64,000 nucleotides of DNA from Candidatus Thorarchaeota archaeon (lineage in GTDB: Archaea > Asgardarchaeota > Thorarchaeia > Thorarchaeales > Thorarchaeaceae): NCBI GenBank assembly GCA_046482545.1, contig JAWOEX010000028.1:32001-96000 (forward strand), read 5' to 3'. Within the stretch, counting starts at the first letter, position 1, and every line of letters starts with the position of its first letter. Of this stretch, positions 1 to 56,886 are shown piece by piece. The position numbers and the translations under genes were made by a program. Under the pieces are notes generated by a model. It saw nothing but the letters and a program-made list of their open reading frames with translations, did not search any database and had not been told where the DNA came from.

Positions 1-518
1 TTCGAGACTTAAATTTGGCCCCTCTTGCCTTCTGTCCAAATCTGGAAGAAGCATATCTCCAGACAAATTCCATTCAAAGCATCGATTTGTCGCCCTTGAG
101 TCACTGCAAGCAATTGAGATTTCTGAGAATAGATGATAACGAGCTATACGCCATAGACTTAGATCCTTTGGCAGGATGCACTCGGTTGCAAGAGTTATTC
201 TTGGAGAGCAATCCTTTCGAAACTATAGATTTGAGCCCACTTAGAGGATGTAAACAGCTGGAAGGTCTTTGGCTCAGAGAAGCTGAATTACTGGCAGTCA
301 CCCTGCATCCATTGTCAGAATCAAAGAGCTTGTTGTGGCTTGACTTGAGCGATAATGAGTTACATTTTTTGGACATTACACCGCTTTTCGATTGCCCAGA
401 CCTTGAATCCGTAATGCTAGATGACTCGGTTATCCTGATAGCCGATAATAAATACAAAGATAGAGAATTCCCATATGCCTTGAGGAAATTTAGAGATAGA
501 ATATACTGGCCTGAATGA
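1..518 (+). CDS. Leucine-rich repeat protein, 5'-truncated by the window edge
   Basis: Repeated LxxLxLxxNxLxxIDLxPLxxC units; the reading frame stays open upstream of the TTG at 15 to the window edge. Confidence 0.9.
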   Translation, partial: RDLNLAPLAFCPNLEEAYLQTNSIQSIDLSPLSHCKQLRFLRIDDNELYAIDLDPLAGCTRLQELFLESNPFETIDLSPLRGCKQLEGLWLREAELLAVTLHPLSESKSLLWLDLSDNELHFLDITPLFDCPDLESVMLDDSVILIADNKYKDREFPYALRKFRDRIYWPE

Positions 519-49874: not shown

Positions 49875-50831
49875 ATGCCTCAAGCTATGTACACAGTATG
49901 GTGGCACGATACCCTAGGCCCAATGGTAGGCAGGAGTTATCCTGAATCTACCCGTCTAACTAGCGAAGAAGCGGTTACCATATTCATGAGTCATGGAAAC
50001 GATATGAAGGCAGAAATAGGTTATACCAAGCTTCCAAAGGGTCTGATTATCTCATATATGGAGCGGCCCAATTGCATAGCTGTCCTGCTCGACAAAGATG
50101 ACGAACCTTCAGTCATTGAAAGGAATCTCCAAAGAGTTGTATCAAAGATGGATTTCAACTCTGAGTCTTGGGAAGACGAAATCAAGTATGCCTTCCAACG
50201 TCTTGAGGAGCTGATTCACGAAACGACGGGAAATGAATTGCTGTCGAAACCAGAGGTGCGGCAACTCATCGTTGATATGGGTAGAAGGAGAATAGGACCA
50301 ATAAAACCCAAGCAATCGCTGATGGCAGTTACAGAATATCCAGTTGCAAAGGAGTACTTAGGGGCTGGTCATGAAGAGGTAGTACGAACACTAGAAGATC
50401 TCGAGGAGGAGGGGTTCATAGTAGGAAAAACGTACGGAAGAAGCATCCAGTGTCAGCATTGCGGAAGCACCCAAGTTGAGCTTGTACTGAAATGTCCTGA
50501 TTGTGGTTCAACAAGCTTGCATAAAGTGTACACAGTTTTCTGCCCAAATTGTAGGAGTCGCTTCCATACGGTCGTCGGTGACGAAATCTCAGAAGTGATC
50601 TGCCAAAAATGCAAAGAAGCAATTCCTCTTTCAAAACTACAAGTCTTGGAAGTAGAGCCACTATGTAATGAATGTGGAAAGGTGACTAATGAGCCCAAGA
50701 TTGATTTCAAATGTGTTACATGTGGTAAAGAATTCCAGATAATCGACCTGATGGGTGGCACCACAGTCGCTTACCACCTTTCTGATCGTATCAAAGAACG
50801 AACTAATAACATCAAAAAAGGTAAATCATAA
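49875..50831 (+). CDS. Longin-like N-terminal domain fused to a TackOD1-like wHTH/multi-Zn-ribbon domain
   Basis: WWHDTLGP...YP start; LEDLEEEGFI; six CxxC pairs. Confidence 0.65.
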   Translation: MPQAMYTVWWHDTLGPMVGRSYPESTRLTSEEAVTIFMSHGNDMKAEIGYTKLPKGLIISYMERPNCIAVLLDKDDEPSVIERNLQRVVSKMDFNSESWEDEIKYAFQRLEELIHETTGNELLSKPEVRQLIVDMGRRRIGPIKPKQSLMAVTEYPVAKEYLGAGHEEVVRTLEDLEEEGFIVGKTYGRSIQCQHCGSTQVELVLKCPDCGSTSLHKVYTVFCPNCRSRFHTVVGDEISEVICQKCKEAIPLSKLQVLEVEPLCNECGKVTNEPKIDFKCVTCGKEFQIIDLMGGTTVAYHLSDRIKERTNNIKKGKS

Positions 50832-50840
50832 CAAGTTTTT

Positions 50841-51623
50841 ATGAACAGCCATATTATAATAATCATGGCAATCGGAATAATCGGCGGCTCAGGATTTTAT
50901 GAGTGGTTTGAAGGATCTACAGAGAAGAAGGAGACTCCTTTCGGTCTTAGCTCACCAATAACTATGGTTGACAGGAAGGAGGTGCCAGTATATTTTCTCG
51001 CACGGCATGGTCCCGAACATGGTCTTCCTCCGCATCTCGTGAATTATAGAGCCAACATCTATGCATTACGAGAAGTAAGTGTTACTCACATCATTGCAAC
51101 AAATGCCGTGGGAAGCTGCAAACAGGCAATAAAGCCGGGGGATTTCATGGTTCCAAATCAGCTTATAGACCTGACCACTGGAAGGCAGTCCACCTTCTTT
51201 GAAGGTAGCCGACAGAAAGATGTGCCAGAAGAATTCATGAAAGTCAAACATACCGATGTCAGCTTCCCTTACAAGGGAGATGTCCGAGATGTCATAATCG
51301 AAGTTCTCTCTGACGGGGATATTGATTTCCATGATAATGGGACATATGTGACTACAAATGGCCCCCGATTTGAAACAGCCGCTGAGATCCAAATGGCTAA
51401 ACTGTTTGGCGGCGATATTGTGGGCATGACAAGCGCCCCTGAAGCATTTCTCGCCCGTGAGCTTGAGATTGATTATGCTACAGTTTGTTTGATAACTAAC
51501 TATGCAGCCGGCATGCAGGACACAATCTCACATCAGGAAGTCATCAAGCTATTTGATTCGCGCACAGAGGATCTCAAGCGAATCATTAAGAGGTGCTTGA
51601 GCCGCTTAGATGAGAAGATTTAG
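50841..51623 (+). CDS. mtnP: Methylthioadenosine/methylthioinosine phosphorylase
   Basis: IGIIGGSG, LARHG..H..PPH.VNYRANI, GPRFETAAE and VGMT..PEA.LARE motifs. Confidence 0.88.
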   Translation: MNSHIIIIMAIGIIGGSGFYEWFEGSTEKKETPFGLSSPITMVDRKEVPVYFLARHGPEHGLPPHLVNYRANIYALREVSVTHIIATNAVGSCKQAIKPGDFMVPNQLIDLTTGRQSTFFEGSRQKDVPEEFMKVKHTDVSFPYKGDVRDVIIEVLSDGDIDFHDNGTYVTTNGPRFETAAEIQMAKLFGGDIVGMTSAPEAFLARELEIDYATVCLITNYAAGMQDTISHQEVIKLFDSRTEDLKRIIKRCLSRLDEKI

Positions 51624-53230
51624 CTATTCAGCTTCCCTTCTACTAGTTCTCTTGCGGCCGATATGATTTTCATCGCACCCTTCTCATTAAGGCCTTCAAC
51701 CTTCTGAGCTAACCGGTCAGCTCGTTCACCTGCAAGTTGTGCCGCTGACTCATACCCTTCTCTCTTGAGCCTATGCTCCATCTTCTCTCCCACACCGTGA
51801 ACCCTCCGCAAGGGCAATATCTTGGCTACTTTGCCGCCTAGCATATCTTCTAGGTCAGCATCAGAAACATCCGATGCTGCATCAATTATGTCCAATTGTT
51901 GTCGGATGGATTCAAAGTCTCTATCGTCAAGGTAGTTATCAACAGCCTCCTCAACCCTTTCTTCATCAAATCTGAGTTCCAAATCTTCCATCTCAATTTC
52001 TCTGGAAACTACATCTGGTACCCGCCCCATGAAATACAGCGATATGAACGCTAGGAGAATGGAAGTCTGCTCAGCTATTCTACTCGTAGCTTGGGACGGA
52101 GCAAATTCAATCGCCCCAATTTCAAGAAACCAGAAGAGTATTGCATAACCAAGATAAAGCATCCACACAGCAGCTAATCGTCTGGCTTTGGTTTTTGGAG
52201 AACCCACCTCGCCCCATATCAAGAGAAGTGTGCTTCCCATCAGGAGGCCTTCAACTAACCTCTCAAAAATCAATAATGGCAAGGCAAAGATGTAGAAGCT
52301 TTCTGCTACCCCTACTATATTGTACCCATAGAAGGCAGGACCAAATATTGTGAGTAATCCCATTCCCAATATTCCTGCGCGCAACGCCTCTTTTCGGTCG
52401 AGCAAATCCGCAATGAATCCGCCTATCAAAACTCCGGTTGCCAAAACAATGAAATCCAGACCTTCAATACCCGACAAGAAGACAAGCGAGTGATTATGAG
52501 ATAATGGCTCCATTGCTTGTGCCAATGTAGCTTTCGTAGCCGCGTACCACAGGAAATGAGCCGCCATGACGAATGCGAGCGGAACCAAATAACGGCTGGC
52601 CTTTCCCCGGACTGCAAGAGCCACCTGATCAAAATTCCATGGCCGAAAGCTCACAGAGACGAATAATGAAACCAGACATACTATCTCTGCAATTGGAGTG
52701 GTACTTGAACCGCCAACATAAGGCGACAGACTGAAGAATAGAAAAACACTATAAAAAACAAAAGCCACCGAGATAAGAACACCTGCGATCCGCCCTCTGA
52801 ATCGTGCCACAACAGTCCTGTTTAGGAAAACAGCCCAACTCCCCACCATCAAAACTAGTCCGGAGAATGTCAGAATTACTGTTGCGAACTCAAGTACGGG
52901 GGAGTATTGGTTAGGAAAGCCAAGAATCCACCCCAGAGTTCCTGCAACAAGTGGAGCCAAACCACCAATAAAAATGACTGCATCGAGCCGCTGAACCCTA
53001 TCCAAAATGCTGGCCATTAGCAATAGAGAAAACAACATTGAGAAAAGACCAAGCGTTAGAAACTTCATATTCGCATATGCCGTCCAAGCAGGAGCCACAA
53101 GTAAATAAATTGAACTAAAATGAAGCAGAATATAGGATAATGAGGGAGTAGAGAGAAGGTAGAAAATTGCCTTTTTCCATGGGAATTCTCGATATTCCAG
53201 CAAGTTATTTCCTCGAAATCCGATTTGCAA
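51620..53230 (-). CDS. Polytopic (~12 TM, MFS-like) membrane protein with C-terminal HhH domain
   Basis: RFRGRI and GFIADLLDRK MFS-like loops; acidic linker; LRRVHGVGEKMEHRLKREGY HhH. Confidence 0.7.
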   Translation of the reverse strand: MQIGFRGNNLLEYREFPWKKAIFYLLSTPSLSYILLHFSSIYLLVAPAWTAYANMKFLTLGLFSMLFSLLLMASILDRVQRLDAVIFIGGLAPLVAGTLGWILGFPNQYSPVLEFATVILTFSGLVLMVGSWAVFLNRTVVARFRGRIAGVLISVAFVFYSVFLFFSLSPYVGGSSTTPIAEIVCLVSLFVSVSFRPWNFDQVALAVRGKASRYLVPLAFVMAAHFLWYAATKATLAQAMEPLSHNHSLVFLSGIEGLDFIVLATGVLIGGFIADLLDRKEALRAGILGMGLLTIFGPAFYGYNIVGVAESFYIFALPLLIFERLVEGLLMGSTLLLIWGEVGSPKTKARRLAAVWMLYLGYAILFWFLEIGAIEFAPSQATSRIAEQTSILLAFISLYFMGRVPDVVSREIEMEDLELRFDEERVEEAVDNYLDDRDFESIRQQLDIIDAASDVSDADLEDMLGGKVAKILPLRRVHGVGEKMEHRLKREGYESAAQLAGERADRLAQKVEGLNEKGAMKIISAARELVEGKLNS

Positions 53231-53286
53231 GTGAAATCTAATAAGGACATCTGGTTCGAGTTATTTTTCCCAAAGGCCAAATTGCT

Positions 53287-54249
53287 ATGCCCGCAGGATA
53301 TAATTTTAATGCGAATCTTAGTCTCGTTTGGTTGGGTATTAGTTTGCAAAGAAGTCTGGGTGCGCAGGAATTCATGGTTATTGCTCCGGGAGGTGCTCCT
53401 GTATTCCATCATTCGAACAGAAATATAAAACGTCTTGATGAGCTACTTTCGGGCTTTCTTTCTGCAATCACTGCCTTCGCTAATGAATTTGGGGAGCGAT
53501 CAGTTCAGAGTCTCTCCTTCGAAGGCTCAGAGCTGCTCTATGAACATGGTAAAAATGGTCTAATATTCGTTCTTCTCATTGATGCTGATGCTTCAGAGAC
53601 GGTTCTCAGAGCAGTCCTCAAGGAGCTGAGTAAGAGATTCCAGAACAGATTCTCATCAGAAATCGGAATGGAAATCCCCATAGCTGACACATATGAGGGG
53701 TTCGATGAAGAAGTCAATGCAGTAGTGCAGAAGTATCGGAACGTTCTGAAGAAAGCCTCTCAACTCAATGGTTTTGTAGTACCACAGTTAAAGACCGAAC
53801 AGGATGAATCCGTTTTACATTCTGACATTCTGGATGAACTCCATCGCGATTATGGTAACTTGGGTGTTCGTGTCTTAGAGTCTATTGACGGAAATACCTG
53901 TATTCACGAAATCAAAGAGCAAACCGGTTTGGAGGAGAGCGACATCTTGGAAATCATAGAGCACCTAATCATCTCAGGAGCCATAGAAATCAAGTTATTA
54001 TGTCCATCTCTTCTAAAGGCCGATTCTCGTTTTGAAACTTATCTTGATCTTATCGGCTTGCCGCAGAAGGATTACCAAATTCTACAACGAGCAAGAATCC
54101 TCTGTGATGGACAGCATCCGCTTACAGAAATTAGTGAAAAAATTGATGTATCACCGGAACGTCTTTTCGACGTATTGTCTAAGATGGGGGACACGGATGT
54201 AGAGTGGTTGAAACAAGACCCAAGAGACGTTCAAAAAACGAACTATTAA
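53287..54249 (+). CDS. Longin domain plus two winged-helix repeats
   Basis: GGAPVFHH...LLSGFLSAI..F longin motif; IDGNTCIHEI and CDGQHPLTEI wHTH repeats. True start probably ~53357-53374. Confidence 0.75.
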   Translation: MPAGYNFNANLSLVWLGISLQRSLGAQEFMVIAPGGAPVFHHSNRNIKRLDELLSGFLSAITAFANEFGERSVQSLSFEGSELLYEHGKNGLIFVLLIDADASETVLRAVLKELSKRFQNRFSSEIGMEIPIADTYEGFDEEVNAVVQKYRNVLKKASQLNGFVVPQLKTEQDESVLHSDILDELHRDYGNLGVRVLESIDGNTCIHEIKEQTGLEESDILEIIEHLIISGAIEIKLLCPSLLKADSRFETYLDLIGLPQKDYQILQRARILCDGQHPLTEISEKIDVSPERLFDVLSKMGDTDVEWLKQDPRDVQKTNY

Positions 54250-54343
54250 GAGACTCAGAATGCAACAAGAGAGAAAAGCAATGTGTGGCTGAGTTATAAG
54301 TAAAAAGAAATATACCCATATGAAATCCCATAGGTGAAAGAGT

Positions 54344-55627
54344 GTGCCCCTTGAAATCATAGTTCTTCGAGATAGTGGTATTCCTCTCTTTCACTACGGC
54401 GCAGCTGGCTCAAAAAGACTTAATGAATTAGTAGCCGCCTTCTTATCTTCAGTTGGACATGTGGTTGAAAGATTCAGCAAAGAAGGAATTCGTGAAATAC
54501 GGTTTGAAGAAAGCAAGTTTGTATGGAAAAGAAAAGGAGACCTGTTTTTCATTGCCTTTGTGTCAGCACAAGATAGTAGTCAGGTTTATGATGTAATTCT
54601 GAATCAACTTGCAGATAGATTCGTTAGCAAATTCTATGAGACTCTATTGGAGAAAGAAGATGAGTCTTCCGAGTATGAGGGTTTTGCAGAAACCATAGAA
54701 GGGCTTCTGCGAAGATTTGATGGAGTTCCAGGAATGGCAAGAAGATACAAAACCTATCTTCTGCCGCTTGAGGACATGCACAGGATAAAGACTAGCCTTC
54801 GAAAGATAGAATCAACATCAGGGGTTGAAAGGGGAGCTTATCTTGTTGATGATGGATACATCATCGTCTCGAATCTGCGCACATATGAGCTAGAAGCAAC
54901 GCTAGATATGATATCAAACGGTGAGATTTCCTCTGAGAAATACCAAAGACCTGACTTCGTGGAACATCCCGCTCTCGATCAATCCAATCGCCTGCTCTTC
55001 CATGCAACGTCGAATGGTATCCTTCTGGTACTAGTTGTTGACTCCAAGGAAAGCCCTAGTGTGAGATTGAATTCGTTGAAGCGGTTAGAAAATAGAATTA
55101 TCGGGATTGATCCTGATACAGGAACGAAAATCGAACCACAAACAGAGAGAGAGCCTTTGGAATTTGAGGAGCACAAGATGCTTGTTCCACTGGTATCTGT
55201 CAATACAGAGCAGAAACATGACACGCCTTTGCTTGTTGAAGTACCCGAACACATGAAACACTTGGTTCTTCGAGTACTCCAAATTGCTGATAAAGGTCTG
55301 ACCATTGCTGAGATTCGAGAGGAGGCAGGAATGATGCGGAAAGAGATAGATGAGGTCTTGGCTCAAATAGTGGGCAGAGGCTTGGCCAGACTGTCTGAAG
55401 CTTATCCGTTTCTTACAATGGAAGATTCTCGATTCAAAGCTTATCTGGATATCGTCGGTATTCCTAAAAGGGACCAAAGAGTCCTAAACACAATTTGGCA
55501 TCACTTGGATGGAGACCACTCCATCAGGGATATAGCAGAAAAGACCACAGAATCACCCTCAAAGATTGTGAGTGTTTTACGCGCGCTCGGAAAAGTTGTA
55601 GAATGGCGAACAAGGAGAGCTGCTTGA
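54344..55627 (+). CDS. Longin plus roadblock-like domain plus two winged-helix repeats
   Basis: SGIPLFHY...LVAAFLSSV; GVERGAYLVDDGYIIVSN; ADKGLTIAEI and LDGDHSIRDI. Confidence 0.72.
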   Translation: MPLEIIVLRDSGIPLFHYGAAGSKRLNELVAAFLSSVGHVVERFSKEGIREIRFEESKFVWKRKGDLFFIAFVSAQDSSQVYDVILNQLADRFVSKFYETLLEKEDESSEYEGFAETIEGLLRRFDGVPGMARRYKTYLLPLEDMHRIKTSLRKIESTSGVERGAYLVDDGYIIVSNLRTYELEATLDMISNGEISSEKYQRPDFVEHPALDQSNRLLFHATSNGILLVLVVDSKESPSVRLNSLKRLENRIIGIDPDTGTKIEPQTEREPLEFEEHKMLVPLVSVNTEQKHDTPLLVEVPEHMKHLVLRVLQIADKGLTIAEIREEAGMMRKEIDEVLAQIVGRGLARLSEAYPFLTMEDSRFKAYLDIVGIPKRDQRVLNTIWHHLDGDHSIRDIAEKTTESPSKIVSVLRALGKVVEWRTRRAA

Positions 55628-55628
55628 A

Positions 55629-56390
55629 ATGGCTGGGAAAATAGTTGCAGTTCATAGCTTTCGAGGCGGCACAGGCAAATCAAATATTTCAGCTAACCTT
55701 GCTGCTGTGGCCGCTCTCGGAGGGAAAAGAGTAGCTGTAATGGATACAGACGTTGCTTCCCCTGGAATCCATATTATATTCGGACTGGGGCGACAAAAAA
55801 TCCAGTATACCCTGAACGACTATTTGCGAGGAACATGTGATATTACAGACGCATGCATCGACATGACGGAGAGACTGGGTATAAAAGATGGGCGACTATT
55901 CCTGATACCAAGCTCGATGAGCGCTAGTGATATCACAAGAATACTCAGAGAAGGCTACGAGGTGGGCGACCTTCGAAATGGATTTAGCGAGATCATGAGC
56001 GCAAAGGACCTCGATTACCTCATAATTGACACTCATCCAGGATTGGACAGGGAAACTCTACTATCGATGGCAACAGCTGATGTTCTGTTCGTAGTCGCGA
56101 GAATCGATGAACAGGACTTGCTGGGTACTGCAGCTACTCTATCAGTTGCACGACGTTTAAAAGTACCTAGGATTTGGCTCATTATCAATAAGAAGCCCCG
56201 CATCTACGAAAACGAAGCCATCATCAAAGAGGTCGAAAATAAATTCAGAACCAAAGTTGCATCAATAATACCGATTGTTCCCATCTTGATAGAGGCTGGA
56301 AGCAGATACGTAGTGGCTCTCAAGCATCCTGATAACGTTTTCACGAAGGGGATGAACACCCTTTATCAGCTTCTGGAGAATGAAAAATAG
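55629..56390 (+). CDS. MinD/ParA-family ATPase
   Basis: Deviant Walker A SFRGGTGKSN, DTDVASPG and IIDTHPG. Confidence 0.9.
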   Translation: MAGKIVAVHSFRGGTGKSNISANLAAVAALGGKRVAVMDTDVASPGIHIIFGLGRQKIQYTLNDYLRGTCDITDACIDMTERLGIKDGRLFLIPSSMSASDITRILREGYEVGDLRNGFSEIMSAKDLDYLIIDTHPGLDRETLLSMATADVLFVVARIDEQDLLGTAATLSVARRLKVPRIWLIINKKPRIYENEAIIKEVENKFRTKVASIIPIVPILIEAGSRYVVALKHPDNVFTKGMNTLYQLLENEK

Positions 56391-56442
56391 TTATATTGCA
56401 GAATAATGATAGCCCTTTCTATAGAACTACGTGAGACAGTGA

Positions 56443-56886
56443 ATGATGAATGTCAGCGTACGTATGGCCGATGCGACAGACCGCGAGGAGCTGAAGGACT
56501 TCTATTCCAGAGAAGGGCAGAATTTCGAAGAAATCATGGGCCAAAGGGGTGCTTTTTCTCATTCTGAGACAATGTATATTGTGGCTGAGATGCAGGGCAT
56601 GATAGTCGCGGCACTCAGACTGAGCATAGGAAAGAAACCGGGTGTCGGAAAGGTGGGCATCATCCAGCACTTTGAGGTCGAAGATGAGCTGGAGCAGACA
56701 GAGCTCGGCCCCAGTATGCTGGAAGAAGCTGTACGGATAGCGAAGGAGAAGGGTCTCCGAGCACTTGATGCAACCGTTCGCGACGAGCGATCAGACGTTA
56801 TTCACCTGTACAAACAAGCAGAGTTTGAGGTTGAGCACAAAGAAACCTACCTGAGACGGAAGTTCAGAAAGCGCTTTTTCACTTAG
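56443..56886 (+). CDS. GNAT family N-acetyltransferase
   Basis: VRMA...D, FEVEDELEQTELGPSML and LYKQAEF pattern. Confidence 0.75.
   Translation: MMNVSVRMADATDREELKDFYSREGQNFEEIMGQRGAFSHSETMYIVAEMQGMIVAALRLSIGKKPGVGKVGIIQHFEVEDELEQTELGPSMLEEAVRIAKEKGLRALDATVRDERSDVIHLYKQAEFEVEHKETYLRRKFRKRFFT

Follow-up and report, generated by a model that had tools for sequence, protein, structure and literature searches.

The genes described here lie in a 64,000-nucleotide stretch of contig JAWOEX010000028.1 from a Candidatus Thorarchaeota archaeon, the whole of which we call the window. Four open reading frames, all on the plus strand, were found at the positions given in an earlier note on the same DNA. 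They encode two neighbouring paralogues, here termed A and B, a MinD/ParA-clade ATPase and a GNAT-fold protein, and a membrane protein gene lies divergently upstream of them (Table 1). The homologues carry the name Candidatus Thorarchaeota. Taken together, the module has an NPRL2-like build without the catalytic marks of GATOR1, and its gene order couples it to a MinD-like ATPase of atypical kind; the link between the B and ATPase genes is real and old in the Asgard archaea.

The earlier note had described A and B as paralogues that each carry an N-terminal longin domain and two C-terminal winged helix-turn-helix (wHTH) domains, that share two sequence motifs, and of which the second holds a roadblock-like insert. 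Both motifs were present in the two proteins, and AlphaFold2 models (pLDDT 82 for A; pLDDT 79 and pTM 0.42 for B) together with structure searches bore out the domain composition. Paralogy was seen by BLASTP (E 1e-23 and 1e-18 for two segments) and in a profile-profile comparison (probability 100, E 1.3e-59), and the likeness spans the longin and the C-terminal part, the insert being present in B only. The N-terminal longin domain, itself a feature of NPRL2 and NPRL3, matched solved longins with Z scores of 14.5-15.5: A superposed on VAMP7 at Z 15.0-15.5 with a root-mean-square deviation (rmsd) of 2.2-2.5, B did so at Z 14.5, and the wider set of similar longins comprised VAMP7, Sec22, SRX and Fuzzy (Z 13-15.5). 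The insert of B matched an Asgard roadblock (7yh1; Z 11.0, rmsd 2.6) and MglB (Z 10.0), in support of a roadblock domain. Among B homologues, Fuz_longin_1 was found in 29/39 and a TrmB-type helix-turn-helix (HTH) in 35/39, and TrmB/MarR-type HTH matches were found in most homologues of both proteins; searches of PDB sequences with the A and B profiles returned nothing significant. The structure searches barely probed the winged-helix parts, which were folded only within longer chains. Within the A and B alignments these parts are 34-61% identical, and the longin is among the best-conserved domains of these partner proteins (60% in A, 56% in B). The best-conserved winged-helix residues form a DxRF..L..IG.P linker helix rather than the recognition helix, and the arginine of DxRF (R229 in A, R363 in B) is invariant. 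The recognition helices have mean net charges of -3.6 and -0.6 in A and of -1.3 and +1.2 in B, in a host proteome that is mildly acidic overall. Further Asgard signalling operons contain the tandem winged-helix unit as well: one gene (G000:C26:130772-131701, minus strand) joins a roadblock-like start to tandem winged helices that match the C-terminal part of A (E 1.6e-8), and it stands upstream of a gene that by eye is V4R-like. A second roadblock-like gene lies beside it, and there is no MinD.

The order of longin and winged helices supports the NPRL2/NPRL3-like architecture that the earlier note had proposed, with NPRL2 and NPRL3 as the top whole-chain structural matches of A. A Foldseek comparison, which that note had suggested making against NPRL2/3 and Mon1/Ccz1, gave GATOR1/SEAC chains as the ten best whole-chain matches of A (best E 4.5e-9, with TM scores of only 0.23-0.34), and for B it gave Mon1-Ccz1 (E 3e-9), CPLANE and BLOC-3 first and then GATOR1 (E 2.7e-8). 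The likeness of A and B to NPRL2/3 is therefore one of domain order. Their profile match to NPRL2 had an E value of 0.48, the NPR2 and NPR3 Pfam models matched none of the 76 A and B homologues, and HTH_NPRL3 appeared only below cut-off, in 4/37 A and 4/39 B homologues; NPR2 clusters were among the atlas neighbours at TM 0.46. The longin alone matched NPRL2 (Z 10, rmsd 9.8) more weakly than it did VAMP7, Sec22, SRX or Fuzzy (Z 13-15). The defining features of longins that act as GTPase-activating proteins (GAPs) are an arginine finger and a GP motif (PMC12290439). The GP motif was absent before longin strand 2, where G-x-P stands in 37/37 rows of A and G-x-P/L in B, and no conserved arginine was seen in the short beta4-beta5 loop of the A or B alignments. 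That loop was placed from Arg78 of NPRL2, which we take to mark the expected position of the finger, and not by residue-level superposition. With neither mark in A or B, a role as a GAP of GATOR1 type is not supported. A family with NPRL2-like organisation has been described by Liu et al. in most Thorarchaeota metagenome-assembled genomes, and in the accessible part of that text MinD is not mentioned with it (bioRxiv 10.1101/2020.10.19.343400).

Elsewhere in the window (49875-50831, plus strand), a 318-amino-acid protein opens with a true GP-motif longin, in which W-D-x-x-L-G-P is conserved and to which TackOD1 zinc ribbons are fused. Its gene belongs to the same conserved Thorarchaeota block, and no conserved arginine was seen in its loop. 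This protein is a better candidate than A or B for a longin of NPRL2/FLCN type.

The ATPase matched the AAA_31, ParA and CbiA families of Pfam, and its best solved relative was the archaeal MinD 1hyq (E 3.7e-28), with FleN structures also among its solved relatives. The residues that mark the ParA clade of SIMIBI NTPases (K17, D41, D134 and N187) were invariant in 42 homologue rows, and further motifs included DxD, PG, a Walker B of the form DTHPG, and NK without a following D. Instead of the KGGxGK[ST] of canonical MinD, RGGTGKS was present in 34/34 family rows and in 19 further loci, so that the signature lysine is indeed arginine, as the earlier note had read it; DTDxxSPG, with PG after sensor-1, was likewise found in 34/34 family rows. 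Against the MinD models TIGR01969 (minD_arch) and TIGR01968 the protein scored 83 and 57 bits, with cut-offs of 201.75 and 212.9. The signature lysine usually extends from one side of the ATP sandwich dimer to the other (PMC6582323), and we found no paper testing an arginine in its place. GTP specificity, which the NK motif might suggest, was considered and rejected because the aspartate is missing. The absence of a C-terminal membrane-targeting helix was also confirmed, since the chain stops with the last helix of the core fold.

The ATPase has a mean pairwise identity of 79.5%. It is the most conserved protein of the block, with a median identity to the window copy of 76%; the aldehyde oxidoreductase reached 58%, A 49% and B 37%. 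Among bacteria, the closest relatives (45-49% identity) come from Chloroflexota, cyanobacteria and others and have the same RGGTGKS, so the arginine did not originate as an Asgard peculiarity. In a tree built from a capped sample, the RGGTGKS rows of Asgards and of bacteria stood apart without starred support (89/54 and 85/88), and we therefore claim no direction of transfer. No longin neighbour was recognised in the bacterial loci examined. The bacterial genes are often found among HAMP/GAF sensors and an adenylate cyclase-AAA gene. A cluster that recurs in Chloroflexota (loci L135-L156) comprises a solute-binding protein, a 4HB-HAMP-GAF sensor, a small HTH-like gene, a PrsW protease and the adenylate cyclase-AAA, and in another bacterial cluster an MFS gene occurs with one for a HAMP protein. 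In two long-contig assemblies the ATPase gene is frameshifted or truncated (L137:4989-5752 in G034 and L134:5001-5627 in G244), possibly through sequencing errors.

We followed the gene order across Asgard genomes, as had also been suggested. The single nucleotide between the B and ATPase genes of the window was confirmed, and the association of the longin genes with a SIMIBI ATPase instead of a Ras-like GTPase proved to be conserved across Thorarchaeaceae, a genome of another family (G037) and a family of another order (f12). The gene upstream of the ATPase in 55 Thorarchaeota loci was B in 47 and A in 4; two loci met a contig end, one had B behind an insertion and one had neither, and the commonest spacing was an 11-nucleotide overlap. 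The ATPase gene also adjoins B in G037 and in 17/17 genomes of f12, one member of which is labelled Candidatus Hodarchaeota by NCBI. In f12 the gene for a membrane protein with an MFS-like body and a helix-hairpin-helix (HhH) domain also lies divergently upstream of B and every other neighbour differs, so that only MFS-HhH, B and the ATPase remain together across orders. Among 251 genomes of the phylum, longin genes were found in 3 of 28 families, and these three also have the ATPase (51/59, 1/1 and 18/19 genomes for the longin gene versus 50/59, 1/1 and 17/19 for the ATPase). Some Thorarchaeaceae genomes lack both longin and ATPase genes; we rejected this as evidence of co-loss, as flanking genes were gone from the same genomes, resembling assembly gaps.

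The longin heterodimer of the earlier note did not hold as an obligatory state, because B alone or A alone adjoins the ATPase in many genomes. Only B was found in G037 (96% complete) and in f12, where two genomes were tested with the A profile and a single longin match was obtained throughout. Conversely, five genomes (G019, G028, G231, G244 and G250) had A with no B found, and those in which A stands directly before the ATPase belong mostly to one Thorarchaeota genus. The gene distribution makes B and the ATPase look like the ancestral pair, with A as an apparent duplicate that arose in Thorarchaeaceae and has no roadblock. The gene loci examined showed no small GTPase motif, and our literature searches yielded no paper that connects Asgard longins with MinD.

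Asgards also have a distant, Lys-type MinD-like family that is independently coupled to roadblock or longin-single-wHTH genes. A second, Lys-type MinD-like family (SYKGGTGKT) is coupled to a 200-amino-acid longin/single winged-helix gene in some Thorarchaeota genomes and in G037 (L064:4045-5460, L077, L078 and L080); it was not found in the window's own genome. At L065:3463-5759 and L066:2075-4790, Lys-type MinD-like genes are flanked by a zinc-ribbon or roadblock gene and by a 320-amino-acid gene that looks DENN-core-like by eye and has no Pfam match.

Table 1 Coordinates of the module and its features in the window (nt, nucleotides; aa, amino acids).
Feature	Position	Strand	Remarks
Gene A, open reading frame from ATG	53287-54249	+	320 aa as called
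Gene A, preferred TTG start	53344-54249	+	301 aa; 301-aa protein on record
Longin of A	about residues 6-138, nt 53359-53757	+	AlphaFold2 model, structure search
Winged helices of A	about residues 172-223 and 228-291	+	AlphaFold2 model
Gene B	54344-55627	+	GTG start, 427 aa
Longin of B	residues 1-126	+	AlphaFold2 model, structure search
Roadblock of B	residues 143-254, nt 54770-55105	+	AlphaFold2 model, structure search
Winged helices of B	about residues 302-357 and 362-422	+	AlphaFold2 model
MinD/ParA-clade ATPase gene	55629-56390	+	253 aa, 1 nt past stop of B
Walker A RGGTGKS of ATPase	nt 55662-55682	+	Arg at first (signature) Lys; catalytic Lys17 kept
GNAT-fold protein gene	56443-56886	+	147 aa; Pfam Acetyltransf_1 E 3e-7
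Divergent MFS-HhH membrane protein gene	51620-53230	-	Pfam HHH_5 E 5e-7
TATA-like box of gene A	53299-53310	+	at -45 from TTG 53344
TATA-like box of gene B	54294-54298	+	sequence upstream of B
Shine-Dalgarno-like AGGTGA of gene B	54332-54337	+	sequence upstream of B

The sequences upstream of the genes were compared among homologous loci. A TATA-like box was present at -65 to -33 before A in 43/45 loci (shuffle mean 12.9, maximum 24), before B in 41/46 (mean 10.2, maximum 21) and before the GNAT gene in 41/46 (shuffle means across the three genes 10-16), but before the ATPase in only 4/55. The boxes of A, B and GNAT stand at a fixed distance from their genes. Since the search pattern was picked with the sequences already in view, and the loci share ancestry, the contrast between A, B and GNAT on the one hand and the ATPase on the other outweighs the counts themselves. 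The likely transcription units, judged from these boxes, are A, then B-ATPase, then GNAT. The ATPase, which has no box of its own, probably belongs with B, and the single operon of the earlier note, with all four genes and hence the GNAT, is not supported. TTG 53344 is most likely the true start of A, since homologues begin there and the 19 codons gained with the upstream ATG contain the TATA-like box. Archaeal promoters were also profiled genome-wide from crude open reading frame starts, which was uninformative, as was a sigma-70 scan, which does not cover archaeal promoters. Promoter-like consensus sequences are kept across Thorarchaeota before A (GCGATAnCTTAAAG; window 53231-53343 and homologous loci) and before the GNAT gene (CAAAACACTTCTA), and may help to define Thorarchaeota promoters.

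The GNAT gene, usually about 200-290 nucleotides from the ATPase stop, was not found in three genomes outside Thorarchaeaceae (G037, G047 and G057), and is probably a separately transcribed Thorarchaeaceae neighbour. Active GNAT acetyltransferases have a Q/R-x-x-G-x-G/A acetyl-CoA loop. Here the loop is acidic and departs from that pattern (E-x-T-D/E-L-G, with an invariant Glu in 22 rows), and the protein is possibly a non-catalytic pseudo-enzyme. On the other side of the module, the membrane protein consists of an MFS-like body (in homologues, some 11-12 helices are predicted), followed by an acidic linker and the C-terminal HhH, and its atlas neighbours were MFS clusters at 0.94. Its gene is divergent to the longin gene across two orders (Thorarchaeaceae and f12), and in G037 it is present and unlinked.

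Our combined findings lead us to favour, at a little under an even chance, a housekeeping ATP switch in which the MinD-like ATPase is scaffolded and regulated by its dedicated longin/winged-helix partner. Ras-like GTPases are known to use longin and roadblock dimers as platforms. In the reading favoured here, B and the ATPase would be co-transcribed and made together, and B would dimerise via its longin, either with itself or, optionally in Thorarchaeaceae, with the roadblock-less duplicate A. The B dimer or the A-B pair would then supply, by analogy, the kind of helical platform with which longin/roadblock dimers engage NTPases. The ATPase would form an ATP sandwich dimer, with Arg12 reaching across in place of the signature lysine, and B or A would bind this dimer, set the timing of hydrolysis or release, and place the ATPase, standing in for MinE/ParB and for the absent membrane helix. 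The MFS-HhH protein may be the likeliest input or membrane anchor, the output would most likely be signalling or local positioning at the membrane, and the GNAT would remain outside the core. The separate pairing of a Lys-type MinD-like family with longin-single-wHTH or roadblock genes supports this reading, and there is a precedent in ParA replacing MglA beside MglB (bioRxiv 10.64898/2026.10.19.760177). A complex prediction for B with two ATPase copies, ATP and Mg (median score 0.11; runs 0.11, 0.35 and 0.10, against a mark of 0.32; controls not folded) gave evidence neither way. A more specific proposal is that a membrane receptor of transporter-like type feeds Asgard longin/roadblock dimers, which in turn act directly on a SIMIBI (MinD-like) ATPase as its scaffold and activator; we hold this to be less likely than not.

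Several observations weigh against such a switch. That the longins act on the ATPase is suggested by gene order and analogy. Within Thorarchaeaceae the entire block is syntenic, from the TackOD1 gene to a gene for a 646-amino-acid membrane protein, so that only the cross-order adjacency counts as evidence. The ATPase stands apart from B in G016, G021 and G017, and one stray Asgard copy (G242) lies outside the three families with no adjoining longin; since this copy and the bacterial relatives have no longin neighbour, the ATPase can work without one. In addition, the genome has 24 Ras-family matches, which could be clients in trans.

Other readings of the module were weighed on the same evidence. 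Tandem winged helices behind a longin/roadblock sensor would also suit one-component transcription regulators, with the MinD-like protein as an ATP-dependent anti-activator in the manner of FleN for FleQ. TrmB/MarR-type matches in most homologues, the FleN structures among the solved relatives of the ATPase, the HAMP/GAF sensors, adenylate cyclase-AAA gene and small HTH-like gene near its bacterial relatives, and the divergent promoter region common to the module and the membrane gene all point this way. Yet the recognition helices are acidic to neutral, though in a mildly acidic proteome, conservation peaks in the linker helix instead, and no conserved operator palindrome was seen in the upstream alignments (visual inspection, no statistics), and we regard regulators of this kind as unlikely. 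Positioning of DNA or of the division site, with winged helices gripping the chromosome, the MFS-HhH protein tethering it to the membrane and the ATPase moving or spacing, would fit the MinD/ParA fold, an ATPase that is single copy and near-universal in two lineages, and the HhH membrane protein conserved next door. It is quite unlikely for an ATPase that lacks both the membrane helix and the signature lysine, scores far under the MinD/ParA family cut-offs, turned up in none of the 25 further families searched in the phylum and adjoins winged helices that are not basic.

A proto-GATOR1, in which an A-B heterodimer of NPRL2/NPRL3 type acts as GAP for a Rag- or Rab-like GTPase encoded elsewhere and the ATPase is a mere neighbour, could draw on the whole-chain matches of A, the NPR2 clusters in the atlas, the Ras-family matches of the genome and the term NPRL2-like given to a Thorarchaeota family of such organisation in the accessible text of Liu et al. 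The missing GP motif and loop arginine, a longin nearer to VAMP7, Sec22, SRX and Fuzzy than to NPRL2, the lack of NPR2/NPR3 Pfam matches in the homologues and the many genomes in which one paralogue is enough make it improbable. Li, Burroughs and Aravind predicted that ParA-wHTH systems, which are mostly archaeal and in some cases include a fused profilin/longin-like domain, coat invading DNA in defence; Asgard and Thorarchaeota are never named in the preprint text (bioRxiv 10.64898/2026.10.19.760177). Defence of this kind is decidedly improbable here, even with a PG motif after DxD. The hallmark of the ConB2 group, as given in the accessible text, is Arg for the second Walker A lysine (bioRxiv 10.64898/2026.10.19.760177), the reverse of the present case, in which the first is replaced and the second is invariant (42/42). 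Moreover, NF047398 scored 55 against a cut-off of 90, no PADLOC match was obtained for A, B or the neighbours, and the ATPase evolves slowly, has a fixed chromosomal place, is near-universal, and is absent where flanking genes are lost too, as assembly gaps would produce. Long-standing neighbours with unrelated functions would account for the whole-block synteny within the family and for the three genomes with a broken link. We consider this very improbable indeed, as MFS-HhH, B and the ATPase alone stay together across orders while other neighbours change, and the stop/start overlap comes with no promoter-like box before the ATPase.

If the longins do act directly on the ATPase, this partnership would widen the platform rule to SIMIBI NTPases, and before eukaryotes an NPRL2/3-like architecture would have worked not only with small GTPases but also with ATPase switches. 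Such an architecture need not then imply a proto-mTORC1 pathway, and Asgard longins counted as a "eukaryotic signature" would have to be reread. The B-homodimer, A-B and A-only states would show a homodimeric platform turning into a heterodimer. The value of the case is limited because the architecture has already been reported and related ParA/longin-like modules already predicted. The system is small, with three soluble proteins, and testable in vitro.

Compared with known systems, the module resembles NPRL2-NPRL3 (yeast Npr2-Npr3, the core of GATOR1/SEACIT) in having N-terminal longins and C-terminal winged helices in two paralogues. It differs in the absence of both the GP motif and the arginine finger, in the roadblock of B, in having a MinD-like ATPase as gene partner and in not requiring the heterodimer, NPRL2/3 being an obligate pair of paralogues and single-paralogue genomes existing here. 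The ATPase has the fold, DxD and Walker B of MinD/FlhG/FleN, its best PDB relatives; unlike them it has RGG for KGG and no membrane helix, scores below the family cut-offs and belongs to an RGGTGKS family common to Chloroflexota and cyanobacteria. With ConB2 the module shares a ParA-clade NTPase gene that adjoins winged-helix genes, a longin-like fusion, a Ser before Walker A and PG after DxD. Filing it there was rejected on the position of the Walker A substitution, since the ATPase keeps the second lysine and has Arg at the first. The winged helix of ConB2 is a rapidly evolving PwHTH1 domain with a long N-terminal helix; the winged helices of A and B, as given above, are 34-61% identical within their alignments. 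The module further differs from ConB2 in combining tandem winged helices with longin and roadblock, and in a slow-evolving, near-universal ATPase, ConB2 being patchy. Finally, as in MglA-MglB and in Mon1-Ccz1, CPLANE and BLOC-3, longin and roadblock folds occur together, and the first two domains of B match Mon1/Fuzzy and MglB. In place of the three longin/roadblock domains per subunit of Mon1-Ccz1 and the other tri-longin platforms, B has two and A one, followed by winged helices, and the linked NTPase is SIMIBI, not the Ras-like partner of MglA-MglB and the tri-longin platforms.

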